Assembly (NCBI GenBank): GCA_027319565.1
Contig: DAHVNA010000007.1
Coordinates: 1 to 54,250 of the forward strand
Origin: Elusimicrobiota bacterium
Lineage (GTDB): Bacteria; Elusimicrobiota; Elusimicrobia; UBA1565; UBA9628
Direction of reading: 5' to 3'
DNA: 54,250 nt
The first letter of the stretch is position 1, and each line of letters starts with the position of its first letter. The position numbers are program-made. Below, one piece after another: positions 12,001-18,000 of the stretch.

Positions 12001-15000
12001 CAGCAGATCCAATCAGTTTGAAGAAAAACTTTTCCCCCATGTTTAAGATTATAATATTTCGCTAAATTCCGGGCATTCCTCTCTCAATCGTCCATTGAAT
12101 CTCTCAATAAAGGCGTTTTCCGTAGGTTTTCCAGGATTAATAAAGTCGAGCCTAATGCCGCGCGCGATCCTGAGACAAAAAGCCCGCATAATTCCAGGTT
12201 AAATTCTGAGCGGAAACCATGCGTCCGGTCTTGCGATCGATCTGTTCCGACAGCGTCCCGTCAGGATTGGCATAGCGGCGCACTACCGCCATAAAACTAT
12301 CCCCTTTGCGGCGAAGAGCCCCAATCAGAATTTGAAACAGCGGATCCGGAGCGCGGAGAACCTCGCCTGGCTTTAAAGCCGAGACAAACTTATGCTTAAG
12401 CGGCAAGGCTTTAAAAAAAGAAAGATTTCGGGGAGTGAGCGCGATTGAACCCTTCTTGGAATAATCGGCGGCGAGAGTCCAGTAGAATTGGCTAAAGGCC
12501 TCGGTGTTTAAAACCCAGGGGTTCCCGTTGTCAGGCTTAAACACATTGGTCCCGTTGTAACGATCCTCGGGATACCGTCCAATGGCGATTCCCAGGGCTT
12601 TTCTTTGACGATTAATCGGATAAATCTTTTTAAAGACATTTTCAAGCGCCAAGGCCGTGGCTAAAACGCGATCATCTTCCGGAGAAAAAAATCCGTCATG
12701 GGTATTTCCCATCAAGACCGCCAAAATGACGGAGGAGTCCAGCCCGCTGTTTTTATAGCGCATATTGGTCTGGTTAACCGTCGGCATGATAAAACCGCGG
12801 CCCGAATTCCAATGTTTTGAAATCTCAAGCTCAAGGGATTTAGCCTCATTCTTATAGAAAAGAGCGCGGGGAAAATCTCCCAGTTTTTGGGCAAGGCGAG
12901 ATCCCTTAAGCAAGGCTTTTCGCTCAAGCACCTGGGTAAAGAAATGAAAGCCGAAAGACTCTTCCCATAAATCATAACAAGGCTCTTTCCAATGAGTGGA
13001 AATGTAGTCGAGGTCTTTTCCGATGAGGGAATTTTGCGGGAATTTAGGATCGTAAAGGTTGAGGACGCTTTTTTGATCTCCCGCTTTTTCTAATAGAGAA
13101 GCCCAATGGAGAAAGGTTATCGCCCTTAAGGCGGGACCGTCGTTTTGAGGCCGGGCCCAAGGACCGTTGAAGGGAGAGCCGTTCATATTGAACTTGGGTT
13201 CTCCCAATCCGGTTTTCGCTTTCGACTTTTGATTGAGCCGGGAAAAAGCGGCGTAGTTTTTAAGCATTTGAGTCTCAATCTGCCTTTCTTCCGGAGTCTC
13301 AAAGCCTTCAAGCCGGTAAACCAGTTCATTCATCGTAATCGCCGCGTCTCGAATCCAGTGATACCAATAATCTGGGTTTTGTTTTGAGGGAGAAGCAGCC
13401 ACCGCGCCCAAGGCTCCCCCTTTAGGCGAAATATTGGCGAACATTCTTTTGACGGCGACTGCCTTTTCGCGATTAAGCCAGGAAGACAACGGCTCTTTTT
13501 TTTTGGCGAGAGCCGGAATGGAAACAAAAAGACAAAGCGCAATCAGAAGCGACTTTCGAGGGCTTATTTTTTTGAGATCAGAAAATGAAGGGAACGCCAT
13601 AGTGAAGACTCCTTGAAATGTTTTTGGTTTCGTTTGAGCGCGTAGTAAAGAAAAGAAAGAGCCGAGGCTGACAAGATTGCCAAATACGGCCAGGCGCCGA
13701 CCAAGCCGTGCAAGGACAAACTGAGGAAAACGCCAAGCCCACCCACCAGCACCGCCCAAGCGCTCCCCACAAACCAGATCCTGTTTTGCGTCATAATCGC
13801 CCTAGGCAGCATCAGGAGATTCCCCATGGCCCCCATCAGGAAACTCGGTAACGAAAGGCCGTGCATGCCGACCGCATTACTCCAGATGCTGTGAATTTGG
13901 GCGAGCGGCATGAACATAAATAAGAAAGTGGCCAGCCAAGCGCCGAAAGAAGACCAATGGTTCTGCCATTTCTTAGAGAGTTTTCCGTACCTCTCGGCGA
14001 TCATAAAACCAAGCCCGGACAAAGCCGCCACTCCCCCTAAAGCGAAAGGCAAAACGCCTAAAGAAGCATGGGCAAACATGGAAGCGACGCCGGCGGGAAG
14101 AAGAAAAAGCCCGAGAAGAGACAAACCCTTTTGCCAGGCGCCCCAAACCGGGATACCCGCTATTTTTTCCGGCAGATGCCCCGACCATTTTAAGGCATTA
14201 ATAGCCAGATGAGACAAGATCAAAGGAAAAGCCGCAAAATAAATCGCCGCGGGCATAAAACCCGCCAAAGCGACCTGGCTGAGCATAAGGCTTGCCATCA
14301 CCACTCCTATGGTTTGCACCACAGCCGGCGGATATTCTTTGCTTCCAATAAAATAAGACATTAAAATAGAGTCGGCCAAAATCCCCGACAGAACTCCTAT
14401 AAAGGGAATGCCCGAGATAGCGGACAGATGCCCAGCAGAAACGCCAAAGAAATGAACCAGCGCTTTTAACAAAGGATGCGCCGCCGCGAGATTGACGGTA
14501 TTGGCCCAAATCTGCGGAAACTGTAAAAGCCCAAAAATGCCCCAAGAGGCTTCGACAAAGCGCTGGGTTTTTTCATCCCAAGAAAGCGGCGCTTTTTTCG
14601 TTCCAGAGGAACCCTTTTGAACTTCTTCAACTTCAAAAAGCTGCGTTTGACCCGCGTCAAGCCCGATATAAAGGCCGCTTTTGAGCATATCCGCTCCGCT
14701 GCGAGTGTAGACGACGGGAGTTCCATCTTTCTGAAGATGCAAAACATCCCGCAAAAGGTAATCGCGGTCCGCGCGCGGCTTAAAAGCCCCGAAGGCTTCT
14801 AGCGTCGGAGAATCCATATTAAAAAACGCGCCGGATCTCCCGCCGAAATTAGAAGCTCCGATCAGGGCTTTTTGAACTCCATTTTCCGAGTATCCCGAAG
14901 ACCAAGCGACGATGGAAGTGGGGCTCTGCGGAGACAAAACCTCGAGGGCTTTTCCCAGCACTCCTTTGTATTTTTCTCCCATGTCCCAGAGAGTCTCCAG

Positions 15001-18000
15001 ATATTTTTGATTCTCGGGATTGGAATTTTTCCAGTTGATTAGAACGGGAATATCAAAGGGAATCGCCTTTTGCGTGTCCTGGGATTTTGAGAGATCGCCA
15101 ATAAGGTTTTCGGCCTGTCCCACGCCTTGTTCCAGTCCGTTATAGGTCAAAAGCGGACGGAATAAGAGCGCGGTCAGGGCCGCGGCCTTAAAATAGCGCC
15201 CGAATTTATCAATGGGATTTCCTTCTCCCCCATCATGGGTTCCGATAAAATTAAGCTCTCCGGCGCCGCCTTTCTGCCACATCCGGAAAGACACGTTTTT
15301 TAAGGCCTCTCGGAGAATATCCACCGAACCCCCAGAAGAAGCCGAAACCATCGCGTCATAAAGCCCATATTGCCCGCGGCTCCCATCGTGGGTATTTTTA
15401 TTATAGACCGCGCTCGAACCCGCCCGGGACAAGTCGCTAAAATTGGTATAGGCCTCGTCAAAAAGAGCGGCGGAGGAATTTTCTTTCCTCGCGGTTTGGG
15501 CCATTTGGGCCATGAATTCCGCGCCATTGAGTTTTTGCCAGCGCGCTTTAAAATCCTCGATAAACTGGGTCAAGGCCTCTCGCATCCAGCCTTGAGATGA
15601 GTCTCGTTCATGCTCCAGAATAAAAAGCCATCTGGGGAAATAACGGGCGTTCAAAATTTCATAAGCCATGTCGCGGCGGACGAAATTGAGGCTCCAGGGC
15701 CCGAACATTTTACTGGTCTGGTCTAATTCCCATTGCCGGGTCTCGGGGCGGCTGTAATCCATCTGCGCCAAATCCGTCCACATGTCTCCGCCGTAATCGG
15801 TAATCGGATACTGAACGAGGATTTTCTTGGAAACATACCCGCCGTTTTCGGGATAGTGATCGGTATGCAGAAGATAAAACGCGGGTTTCCCGTTGTGGAG
15901 AGGAACCTGGGCCATGATTTCCTCATCGCTCAGATTTTGCGGGGGCACGACATTCATCACTCCCTCGGGAAATTCCTTAATAAAATCGCTGTCTAATGAA
16001 ACGTGGTTTGGAATAAAGTCAACTCCCACTTTAATCCCCATTTTTTGGGCGCGCGCGATCAGATTTTTAAGGCCTTCGTCCCCGCCAAGTTCAGGTTTGA
16101 CGCGGTATCCCTTAATCGAATAAGCCGATCCCCCGCCGGTTCCCCAGCGGTGAACTTCCCCAATTTCAAAAATATCCATCAACCACAGCGCATTGGCCTT
16201 GATTTTATCCTTGATTCGAGACAATTCAGCCTCATCCAGCGAATCAAGAAAGTTCTCGCCGGGCTTGAGGCGATTATAAGCGCGAGCGAAAATAAGATAG
16301 ATGGAAGCCTGTTTGGCCCACAAAGAAGGATCTAAAAGCTCTAATTGAGATTGATAACTTGAAACGACGGAAATGAGCCACTCGTTTAAGCGCGCGTTTT
16401 TCTCGGAAGGCGCCGCCACGGATGAATGAATTTTTTCAAGAGACTCCAAATCGGAAGCGGCCCAGCCCATTGGAGACAACAAAGAATCGAGATAATGAAA
16501 ATAATCCTCCAACTGCTCTAAATTTCCCTGTCCGCTCTTTTCCAATTCCAGCTTGGAATAGAGAAAACCCTCCAGGCCTTCATCCCTGGCCGAAGCCCAT
16601 TGCCCGGAGGGAAGATGAAACGAAAAGGGACTTAAACTCTGTCCGGGAAGTTTGGGGCCATCCGACAAAACGCCTTTGAGTTCCGAAACGCTGGCAAAAG
16701 CGTCTAAATCCAATCGGCGTGACCCGCCGTCTCCGTCAAAATCAACCGCGGAAACGCCCCGGAAATTGATCCGCTTGTGGTTTAAGTCTAGAAGAGTCCT
16801 TGGGCGACCTTGATTTTCGCTGGGACTCTCCGGATTCCGGGGCGGGTTTTGAAGCGCATTGGAAGTATTTCTTTGGCCGGATGTCGATTTAGATTTTTCC
16901 GGAGCGGCTCTTAAAGACAAATCTTTTAACGGTCCGGCTGAGGGCGCGGAGGCGGGCAAAACAAGAGCCTGGGAAGGCAGTGAGTCTTGGTTTACAATTC
17001 CCTCCATTGAAATATTTTGAGGGAGATTTGATTCCGCAGAGAGAGATATATTTATCCGCTCAGGAGAAGCGGGTTCAAAATTAGACCGAAGAGCGGAGGC
17101 AAAGACGGGAGAATTAATGCCACTGCCGACAAAAACCAAGACCGCGCACAAAAAAGTCGTCGTTTTTTTAATCATAACAGCGCCTACTGAAGAATAATCA
17201 CGCCTCCCGGTTCAAGAGACAAGGGAGGATTTTTCCTGTCCGATCCTTTTTGATCTTGAGCTTTCCCGCTTTTCCCGATGTAAAAGGGAAGAGAAAACCC
17301 TGTTTGAGCGATCCAAGCCTGCCCCTTATCCGGCCCTATGGCCTCGACTTCCCCGTTAAAAAACCAATTGGCCCAAGAGCGGTTGAGCTGCGCGCCAAAA
17401 ATGACGCTGCCGTTGCTAGCCGCCGGCCCGCTGGTCGCCGCGCCTTGAATGGGGCCCAAGTTTCCGCTCGAATCAATAGCGGTCAAACCCGCGTTGACAA
17501 GCCCCGTCACATAGTTGTATCCCACTCCCACAAAAGGAATCCACGCTCCGAATTTTTGGCTGACGATCGCGTTGAGGCCAAAACTATTGACGTTCCAGCC
17601 TAGATTTCCCGATACGTTTTCATTGACGGAAGCGCTTTGGGACCCTCCAGTGGGAAGATTTCCGGAAAACGAAGTTCCATATCCGAAATGTCCGAAAACG
17701 TGATTAAAATTGGCCGCAAAGGTTAAAAGGGGGTCTCCGTCTTGCCCAAAACAATGTTTGCGCAAGGTGGCTCCAATTGAATTAGACTGCCCGTCTCCCG
17801 TCAGAGAATTGGAAAGCCGGTAAGAGGACGGAGTGGTCATATCGGCAAAGCGAAAAGCGAAATCGGATCTCCAGGGCAGTCCGGCTCTTAAGTGCATGGT
17901 CAGGTTGGGAAACAAAACCGAATTGGGAAAGAAATTTTCAATGCCCACGGCCTGAAGAGACTGATCTAATTGCGGAAACTGAGACTTATTAAAAGGCATG

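Follow-up and report, generated by a model that had tools for sequence, protein, structure and literature searches.

An amylase domain joined to a MEX1-family carrier in an Elusimicrobiota bacterium: a probable maltose unit and the membrane side it may serve

On which side of which membrane does an amylase work if it is exported by a signal peptide and fused to a carrier related to MEX1, the maltose exporter of chloroplasts? The question is raised by a locus in the window analysed here, i.e. the whole stretch of 54,250 nucleotides of Elusimicrobiota contig DAHVNA010000007.1. A preliminary description had claimed that one gene for 1203 residues unites an amylase with a MEX1-type domain and that the next gene, overlapping by 37 bases, encodes a GH15 glucoamylase. 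Both statements hold: the frame was read over its full length, and the GH15 gene begins at position 13600 (PF00723, E 4e-77). In the protein a signal peptide and a disordered leader are followed by an intact GH13 domain, and this by a ten-helix MEX1-family carrier (Table 1). Contamination or misassembly was ruled out on the basis of even GC content and of the GH13 domain and carrier sharing a single open frame in 13 genomes.

Table 1. Positions of the fusion gene, its parts and its neighbours in the window.
Feature	Positions	Strand	Details
DUF6588-like protein, probably outer-membrane beta-barrel	17184..18260	-	358 aa from TTG; ends 8 bases ahead of fusion gene
Fusion gene, open reading frame	13564..17175	-	1203 aa
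Sec/SPase I-type signal peptide	17098..17175	-	residues 1 to ~26; from sequence
Disordered Ser/Pro/Asn-rich leader	16732..17097	-	closes with FDG motif (residues 146-148)
GH13 domain	14626..16725	-	residues 151-850: helical N-domain, TIM barrel, C-domain
MEX1-family carrier	13567..14625	-	residues 851-1203; ten helices, 3+3+3+1
GH15 glucoamylase	12152..13600	-	482 aa; plain signal peptide, no FDG leader
Low-GC (43%) insert	9886..12151	.	DUF7718, 184-aa ORF, CAAX-protease gene
Second GH15 glucoamylase	8068..9885	-	605 aa; signal, disordered leader and FDG (residue 143); PF00723 E 8e-80

The upstream product scores below the cut-off against PF20230 (E 0.001) and is placed by the Atlas with an Elusimicrobiota DUF6588 cluster (0.98) and with outer-membrane barrel clusters (0.96); homologues of its gene lie upstream at L056-L058, L028, L030, L059, L063, L080 and L082. 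Both GH15 products are above the PF00723 cut-off and carry what we take to be the catalytic motifs of the family. At four congeneric loci (L056, L057, L058 and L067) the position of the first GH15 gene is likewise occupied and the second GH15 gene adjoins it directly; the second GH15 gene is a member of the amylase-MEX1 unit too. The low-GC insert between them, with an insertion-sequence integrase remnant at its edge (12052-12159, rve_3 E 1.5e-10), is outside the unit. Co-transcription is proposed from spacing alone, because promoter-like sites (8 in the real sequence, 10.4 in shuffles) are not enriched. No RNA dataset was found among the sequencing datasets matched, and the four datasets that contain more than half of the words all derive from mine-drainage DNA of a single study; one of them may be the source.

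The kinship of the C-terminal domain with MEX1 was confirmed by full-length homology to named plant and algal proteins, with 32.6% identity over 282 residues to a Cucurbita maxima 'maltose excess protein 1-like' and 33.5% over 328 residues to a Klebsormidium homologue. With residues 851-1203 as query, phmmer again found 247 proteins at E 0.001 and 31 at 1e-30 among 1.84 billion representatives. The top Atlas clusters are PF28566 MEX1_N (0.92), and the relatives P0158 and P0159 bear the precomputed label of that family. The carrier retains 28 of the 32 columns that are at least 90% conserved in 40 eukaryotic rows; Asn935, invariant in all 40 of these, is Asp in the bacterial protein. In the word-indexed protein search the carrier alone gave no match, and an alignment retrieved four proteins.

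The AF2 model of the carrier (pLDDT 93.7) consists of two parallel three-helix bundles with additional helices, and hhalign detects an internal repeat with a probability of 93%. Sequence searches against the PDB gave no significant match and Foldseek none at E 0.001. The best structural match by VIA is a SWEET (Z 13.2, rmsd 4.3 over 202 residues), a value that is borderline for helical bundles; yet the five leading matches all belong to the TOG superfamily (Z 10.9-13.2), and the next unrelated row stands at 8.6. Of 102 family members, 40 give PQ-loop matches when E values up to 0.1 are admitted. SWEETs have seven helices and a cytoplasmic loop after the PQ motif. Membership of the SWEETs proper was rejected on account of the ten helices and of post-PQ loops nearly free of Lys and Arg; the model supports a MEX1-type carrier that is a relative within the TOG/SWEET-PQ-loop superfamily. 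With kinship and fold computed, maltose is the substrate we infer for the bacterial carrier. An excerpt of PMC12589546 states that plant MEX1 complements E. coli malF.

The GH13 domain (PF00128, E 3e-9) was modelled with a pLDDT of 89.8 as a TIM barrel for which Foldseek returns GH13 enzymes. Its catalytic residues are intact as previously claimed: the nucleophile Asp502, the acid/base Glu574 and Asp648, together with His391 and Asp468, do not vary among the 18 homologues aligned. A profile search of the PDB places 3dhu (E 4.7e-24) and 4gkl (E 5.5e-21) first by 14 orders of magnitude. Since these nearest solved structures are maltogenic GH13_48 enzymes, the link to maltose is stronger than the preliminary description showed. 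Membership of GH13_48 was rejected. The Cys before the nucleophile is replaced by Arg in 18/18; of the L-[DN] end of region V the Asp is present in all 18 homologues but preceded by Ile, Met or Arg, and of the GQ end of region VII the Gly is present in 18 and the Gln in two. Judged by its closeness to GH13_48 and its retained substrate-end Asp, the domain probably works like that subfamily and releases maltose. As far as chemistry alone is concerned, the fusion probably both generates maltose and carries it.

The orientation of the carrier is more difficult to reconcile with export. Its N-terminus, loops 2, 4, 6 and 8 and C-terminus sit on one face, which bears 19 loop Lys/Arg residues against one on the opposite face (helix cores set by hand from the AF2 helices), and the SWEET-like symmetry of the two bundles fixes these sides independently of the linker helices. 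All 47 bacterial rows, 42 of them distinct, have more Lys/Arg on the amylase side (median 18 against 1), and all 75 other rows have more on the equivalent side (13 against 3). Following the positive-inside rule, the amylase-bearing face would be the cytoplasm-type side. No 19-residue window between signal peptide and helix 1 exceeds a KD of 1.35, and no helix was found there in the single fusions and stand-alone carriers examined (peaks up to 1.49). Because the amylase thus joins the positive-inside face without a crossing helix, plain Sec export would insert all ten helices upside-down. The signal peptide itself has two Lys, a hydrophobic core (peak KD 1.89) and a small-residue end on inspection of the sequence, and residues 41-1203 are devoid of Cys; the median of 585 long ORFs is 0.73 per 100, and 12% of these ORFs lack Cys as well. 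Export signal and membrane orientation disagree, which hints that the protein may reside in the membrane of another cell.

SWEET/PQ-loop proteins have their N-terminus outside. A carrier inserted in this manner in the bacterium's own inner membrane could import maltose made by a Sec-exported periplasmic amylase, with the glucoamylases and the barrel scavenging starch from outside. The normal-looking signal peptide, the absence of Cys, the barrel and secreted GH15 neighbours, the presence of MalQ with no sugar ABC found in the genome, and the ability of MEX1 to import maltose in E. coli, as given in an excerpt of the literature, fit this arrangement. We nevertheless consider it unlikely, as it puts 19 of the 20 counted loop charges outside, and the bacterial rows show this bias more strongly than the remaining ones. 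Of the role proposed previously the alpha-glucan and maltose part stands; that the amylase is held in the periplasm by a carrier in the inner membrane of the same cell is doubtful in view of the charge count and the missing crossing helix.

The source bacterium may well take up its maltose through MEX1; its genome encodes MalQ, glycogen synthase and a GlgC-like gene, and no sugar-binding protein was found in it (among six genomes of the genus, a weak candidate occurs in one). Outside the genus a sugar ABC importer adjoins 10 of 19 loci, where an importing MEX1 would consequently be redundant; ABC genes were not seen at eight of the 19, several of which end at contig ends.

The leader and FDG motif recur elsewhere in the genome, in about 14 proteins with a low-aromatic leader and the motif at residues 130-185, a class judged by eye out of 72 crude signal-plus-FDG candidates. 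The cargo includes ordinary exportable hydrolases (M1, S8, GH15), a 12-helix MFS protein showing the same paradox (24 Lys/Arg vs 4 on the canonical cytoplasmic side) and a YrbL kinase-like protein. Among relatives, L088 carries signal and leader before a GH13-glycogen synthase (GT5) fusion, and L087 is a GH13-GT5 fusion whose N-terminus is lost at a contig end; in GT5-fused GH13 the third catalytic Asp is Glu. In L066 a GT20 trehalose-phosphate synthase with a divergent MEX1 follows the leader, and in L061 and L063, where separate genes encode GH13 and MEX1, both products begin with a signal and a leader. The MFS, kinase-like, GT5 and GT20 proteins are left unexplained by periplasmic import. 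That membrane polarity repeatedly contradicts the export signal in leader-bearing proteins of these bacteria suggests, under any of the explanations weighed here, a lifestyle or a route of export that has yet to be described.

Three further explanations address this clash. The chain might be a polyprotein whose exported amylase is cut off near residue 855-865 and freed in the periplasm, so that the weakly hydrophobic helix 1 flips in and leaves an N-in importer in the own membrane. Helix 1 is indeed polar, the linker between GH13 and carrier varies in length and sequence, many relatives are chains of 2000-2800 residues with S8, M14 or M50 peptidases, and an excerpt of 10.1101/2023.11.21.568195 proposes cleavage of giant proteins in Omnitrophota. 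A conserved cut motif was not seen, stand-alone carriers would have no reason to retain the leader, and nucleotide-sugar and ATP-type cargo would lack substrates, which renders this reading decidedly unlikely. If the leader were instead a membrane tether or regulatory tag, the amylase could trim imported maltodextrins or own glycogen at the inner gate of an N-in carrier. The positive-inside data and the GT5 and GT20 fusions fit such a cytoplasmic amylase directly, as do the glycogen and MalQ genes, but the N-terminal head is built of n-, h- and c-regions, as signal peptides generally are, the cargo is poor in Cys, and maltose export beside ABC importers would be a futile cycle; it appears quite improbable. 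An extracytoplasmic compartment holding ATP and nucleotide sugars, bordered by the positive face of the carrier membrane, would reconcile Sec export with the kinase-like, GT5 and GT20 cargo. The genome resembles an ordinary diderm with secretins, and the only precedent known to us is archaeal (Ignicoccus); we regard such a compartment as very improbable.

With somewhat less than even confidence we favour a delivered unit that converts glycogen of a host or prey to maltose and lets the maltose out. Delivery is the most economical reading because the amylase lies on a cytoplasm-type face and yet the protein carries an export leader with no Cys beyond it. Leader-FDG proteins would be placed into the membrane or cytoplasm of the other cell, where the GH13 domain, which is close to GH13_48 and retains the substrate-end Asp, would trim maltose off the ends of glycogen or starch. 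The MEX1-type facilitator would pass it across the membrane, away from the amylase side and toward the bacterium, which may recover it, perhaps with the neighbouring barrel as entry, via the plain-signal glucoamylase in the source genus and via a sugar ABC importer in other genera. All of this, from delivery to host and route, is inferred. Four secretin matches and several giant proteins in the 2-Mb genome speak for delivery. Against it, we know of no Sec-dependent route that takes a ten-helix protein into another cell, and at 92% completeness the genome yielded a single SecA above the cut-off and no export gate of the type III/flagellar kind. The possible role of MEX1 as maltose uptake route of the source bacterium itself, the ordinary hydrolase cargo, the eight loci without ABC genes, the Glu of the GT5-fused GH13 and N935D of the carrier likewise count against delivery, as does a literature search in which no paper was found showing predatory or host-bound life for these Elusimicrobiota, described as free-living in an excerpt of Meheust et al.

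MEX1 had been held to be confined to the green lineage. This does not strictly apply, as dinoflagellate and some cyanobacterial copies are published and present in our data. Within the phylum Elusimicrobiota 22 of 401 genomes bear the family; a scan of one genome per species gave 11 loci, all Elusimicrobiota, with one strict 9-residue pattern that cannot show absence from other phyla. The proposed prokaryotic kin group was recovered, with bacteria sister to all eukaryotic MEX1 (100/100); FastTree leaves the split unresolved (support 32), with two long eukaryote-like rows among the bacteria. Cyanobacterial rows are nested on a long branch among Elusimicrobiota. Neither a grouping of cyanobacteria with eukaryotes (AU p 0.09) nor a placement of bacteria inside early streptophytes (AU p 0.11) was rejected, so that transfer may have run in either direction. 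Recent transfer from land plants or Zygnematophyceae was rejected, both clades being starred without bacteria. A metagenome scan with the Limnothrix protein gave no match, and a three-sequence alignment gave four loci. L068 lies beside glucosylglycerate-type genes.

MEX1 allowed green plants to hold starch in the plastid; excerpts list it as of unknown origin (PMC2246286) and its biochemistry as still pending (PMC12589546). A diverse bacterial sister clade, genetically tied to a maltose-type amylase, is an outgroup for the question of origin, provides proteins for structure and transport work and supports a SWEET/PQ-loop fold for the family. It is a speculative, rather unlikely extension that a class of Elusimicrobiota preys or parasitises by leader-FDG delivery of multi-helix sugar exporters and product-making enzymes into the victim's membrane, the amylase-MEX1 protein draining host glycogen as maltose, and that the chloroplast exporter goes back to a bacterial carrier of this kind, gained before the split of green algae and plants.

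Compared to known systems, the carrier shares two three-helix bundles with TOG carriers (SWEET 5ctg, 5xpd; cystinosin 7zk1, 8dke; KDEL receptor 8apy; SemiSWEET), but adds three linker helices and a further helix at the C-terminus, and has only 7-13% identity and a charge polarity reversed relative to SWEET/PQ-loop proteins. Cyanobacterial MEX1-like proteins (Limnothrix P0116; L068-L071), also noted in a 2026 preprint (excerpt of 10.64898/2026.09.25.754361), belong to the same family at 25% identity and, unlike the fusion, stand alone without signal or leader. With GH13_48 (Thermotoga neapolitana AmyB, 4GKL; Lactiplantibacillus plantarum, 3DHU) the amylase shares His391 of region I and Asp468 before region V, positions that bind the non-reducing end in that subfamily; it differs by the Arg in place of a Cys published for 81% of GH13_48, by the absence of GXR, by long inserts and by an additional N-terminal helical domain. 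Chlamydiae, which in an excerpt of PMC7935935 secrete glycogen-metabolism enzymes and so tap host alpha-glucan, provide a precedent for the delivered reading, but use type III secretion, and no enzyme-carrier fusion is seen there in that excerpt. Plant MEX1 (At5g17520 family) aligns over the full length of the bacterial carrier with 31-34% identity and identical Lys/Arg polarity; the plant protein has a transit peptide, the bacterial one instead an export signal, leader and fused amylase, a 16-residue insert after helix 1 and the exchanges G934A, N935D, A950P and D1131N. The direction proposed for the carrier would parallel that of chloroplast MEX1, which serves beta-amylase in the stroma.

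The fusion gene is real and conserved, and its product represents a new variant of MEX1 from bacteria. From N- to C-terminus it comprises a head resembling a signal peptide, a disordered leader with the motif FDG at its end (residues 146-148), a GH13 domain (PF00128, E 3e-9) and a hydrophobic C-terminal part. The 3' end of a DUF6588-like barrel gene (putative outer-membrane protein) lies 8 bases upstream, and the 5' end of the barrel ORF (signal region) harbors a GC-rich palindrome. At the fusion-gene stop, the 37-base overlap with a first GH15 gene was confirmed as previously described. 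A second GH15 gene directly follows the first in four congeneric loci; in the window the two are separated by a 43%-GC insert containing an insertion-sequence integrase remnant. The CAAX-protease gene of this insert is found at a different place in the related locus L057, between barrel and SMC. A 618-aa ORF convergent with the second GH15 gene is kept in congeners (58–67%) and has no Pfam match.

Features of the window, of loci of relatives (L) and of contigs of the genome under study (C)
Feature	Sequence	Position	Strand
Fusion gene, 1203 aa (ORF)	window	13564-17175	-
Second GH15	window	8068-9885	
Low-GC insert between both GH15 genes	window	9886-12159	
GC-rich palindrome	window	18213-18239	
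618-aa ORF	window	5933-7789	+
Fusion-type GH13 + glycogen synthase (GT5)	L088	5204-9328	+
Fusion-type GH13 + glycogen synthase (GT5)	L087	3278-6967	-
Signal + leader + HAD-like segment (by eye) + GT20 trehalose-phosphate synthase + divergent MEX1-like carrier, 1324 aa	L066	8473-12444	-
Leader-bearing membrane domain after GH13	L082	9418-11007	+
GH13 with C-terminal membrane domain	L089	3393-7664	+
Giant chains	L027	214-4758 and 4517-10900	
Giant chain	L063	487-7761	
Cyanobacterial MEX1-like locus	L068	3727-9092	
MFS-like, leader-FDG	C111	38695-40881	
YrbL kinase-like, leader-FDG	C23	168883-169947	
M1 peptidase, leader-FDG	C22	6223-9327	
M48 peptidase, leader-FDG	C29	5039-8059	
S8 peptidase, leader-FDG	C78	50309-52501	
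4659-aa protein, leader-FDG	C56	30154-45680	

The membrane part of the fusion protein is MEX1. A phmmer search with the carrier part against 1.84 billion representatives yields 247, 125 and 31 matches at E 0.001, 1e-10 and 1e-30, respectively. Of 30 matches inspected, the taxonomically named ones comprise Closterium (2), Klebsormidium, Chlorokybus, a Cucurbita 'maltose excess protein 1-like' protein, a 'Mesen1' record (presumably Mesotaenium), Pyramimonas, Pterosperma, Neomeris, a dinoflagellate cluster and the cyanobacterium Limnothrix; the remainder carry no taxon name. The alignment spans the entire length, with 31–34% identity to streptophyte copies. Of 32 columns that 40 eukaryotic rows conserve, the carrier retains 28, N935D being the notable departure. 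The AF2 model of the carrier (102 sequences, pLDDT 93.7) depicts ten membrane helices, and the two halves of the carrier are repeats of each other. In a comparison of the model with 48,161 chains, the top five places go to two SWEETs, the KDEL receptor and a pair of cystinosins (Z 13.2–10.9), the following row having Z 8.6. The PQ-loop is matched weakly by 40 of 102 family members, and Foldseek alone gave no significant match for the model. Three homologous proteins (P0017, P0019, P0065; two of them Closterium records) combine MEX1 with an HSP20 domain, either as a real fusion or through gene-model error.

Lysine and arginine residues were counted in loops delimited from the carrier model: 19 are located on the face formed by the N-terminus, loops 2, 4, 6 and 8 and the C-terminus, and 1 on the opposite face. 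The same bias is found in all 47 bacterial-clade rows (5 duplicates; median 18 vs 1) and in all 75 non-bacterial-clade rows (13 vs 3). The positive-inside rule assigns the K/R-rich face to the cytoplasmic side; by that rule the amylase is attached to a cytoplasm-type carrier face, the side that would be the stroma for plant MEX1. No membrane-like segment is present between signal and helix 1 of the fusion protein, and the corresponding peaks reach at most 1.49 both in the simple fusions (14) and in those stand-alone or part-length carriers that allow placement of helix 1 (9); the giant polyproteins among the relatives contain additional helices. Export by a Sec signal would thus leave the amylase outside the membrane and invert the carrier within it. 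The periplasmic amylase with an N-out carrier of the preliminary description agrees with the signal but is unlikely, and this compartment model probably fails, as the amylase is joined to the K/R-rich face and there is no helix to cross back. An unusual compartment, which would accommodate the same conflict, is very improbable.

The conflict between signal and polarity is general. About 14 proteins of the genome under study, picked by eye out of 72 crude candidates, share a signal, a low-aromatic leader and FDG. A Pfam scan of 13 leader candidates, 11 of them from this set, left 7 without a match and identified M1, M48 and S8 peptidases, a HEAT protein, a YrbL kinase-like protein and an MFS-like carrier, whose K/R distribution (24 vs 4) favours the usual cytoplasmic side, N-terminus included. 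One leader-FDG protein of 4659 aa is cysteine-free and has no Pfam match. A non-exporting leader, which would agree with the polarity and disagree with the signal, is improbable.

Related architectures carry the leader as well. The GH13-GT5 protein of L088 is preceded by signal and leader, and in the GT5-fused GH13 the third catalytic Asp is replaced by Glu. The L066 protein, with its GT20 domain (E 1e-70) and divergent carrier (26%), is a possible trehalose make-and-export unit. Both kinds of fusion enzyme, GH13-glycogen synthase and GT20-carrier, require nucleotide sugars. In L061 and L063, GH13 and carrier are split and the leader is kept on each gene. Giant chains containing the GH13-MEX1 unit (L027, L063, P0012, P0015, P0026) add S8, M14 or M50 peptidases, HEAT repeats, an ATP-grasp-related domain or a PnuC-like carrier; that the fusion protein is a polyprotein to be cleaved, leaving amylase and carrier separate, is improbable. 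In L082 and L089 the carrier's place is taken by a membrane domain with neither Pfam nor MEX1 match; the two look related by eye and are possibly a non-homologous substitute carrier.

Outside the genus, a sugar-binding protein and two permeases adjoin the carrier at 10 of 19 loci, with a partial match at one more and none alongside the other 8, several of which are truncated; they also stand beside 4 of 12 further, carrier-free GH13 loci. In the fusion's own genus the locus has no such neighbours, the binding-protein family is absent from 5 of 6 genomes, and two glucoamylases occupy that place. Delivery of the fusion protein into another cell's membrane is tentatively preferred, since it alone would cover signal, polarity, cytoplasm-dependent cargo and adjacent importers. 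Against it, no route for such delivery is known; in the genome, which is able to use maltose itself, one SecA but neither a type III gate nor another importer was found, and the literature searched yielded no predatory or host-bound life of these bacteria.

Among 401 genomes of the phylum, the carrier is present in 22, the fusion-type GH13 in 25 and both in 18 (one open frame in 13, adjacent genes in 2, separate contigs in 3), counts that come from kin genomes and thus are not independent. Every carrier match falls in one class.

For the tree, 150 domain rows were reduced to 122, then to 78 hand-picked rows including three metagenome cyanobacterial ones, and after removal of three long branches to 75; L021 and L023, which diverge most among the bacterial rows, were omitted. 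Under LG+C20+F+G4, 36 bacterial and 39 eukaryotic rows are separated at 100/100. Six cyanobacteria-type rows are nested among Elusimicrobiota rows (100/95), streptophyte-labelled rows cluster at 94/84, and chlorophyte and dinoflagellate rows at 84/16. These inner groups are partly circular because most labels came from leader and tree position; outside evidence backs 14 of 30 'Elusimicrobiota', 9 of 39 eukaryotic and 2 of 6 cyanobacterial labels. The tree fits a split older than the last common ancestor of green plants and speaks little for cyanobacteria as the source; AU tests reject neither a clade of cyanobacteria plus eukaryotes (p 0.09) nor a placement of the bacteria within early streptophytes (p 0.11), and the tree, being unrooted, designates no donor. 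The cyanobacterial gene in L068 directly follows a sucrose/glucosylglycerate-phosphorylase-like GH13 and a mannosyl/glucosyl-phosphoglycerate phosphatase, is divergent from a GpgS-like gene and has ccmP two genes on; the neighbours in L070 differ. Because this one locus adjoins glucosylglycerate-type genes, the cyanobacterial branch may carry another solute, perhaps an osmolyte.

Tyra et al. class MEX1 as specific to Plantae, give its origin as unknown and include a single copy from a dinoflagellate (PMC2246286). A 2026 preprint lists dinoflagellates and a few cyanobacteria and disfavours a cyanobacterial origin; 'elusimicrob' is absent from its main text; its Fig. S20 may hold such rows (10.64898/2026.09.25.754361). 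The literature searched, which took in few subscription journals, describes neither the fusion nor the leader class, and mentions no MEX1 from Elusimicrobiota and no SWEET-type fold for MEX1; as far as it shows the amylase-MEX1 architecture is new.

The biochemistry of the preliminary description stands. Computation shows the fold and the kinship, the catalytic residues to be intact, the polarity of charge, and the linkage with alpha-glucan and sugar-uptake genes; maltose is likely both product and substrate. A profile of 18 GH13 homologues matches 3dhu (E 4.7e-24) and 4gkl (5.5e-21), the next matches reaching only 1e-6. Both are GH13_48 maltogenic amylases, and the paper on that subfamily assigns binding of the non-reducing end to Asp135 and His103 in 4GKL (PMC11239784). 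Their counterparts D468 and H391 as well as the triad D502/E574/D648 are invariant in all 18 homologues. Formal membership in GH13_48 was rejected, the Cys preceding the nucleophile in the subfamily being Arg in the fusion protein and two further marks being partial; judged by its sequence, the GH13 domain probably works like GH13_48.
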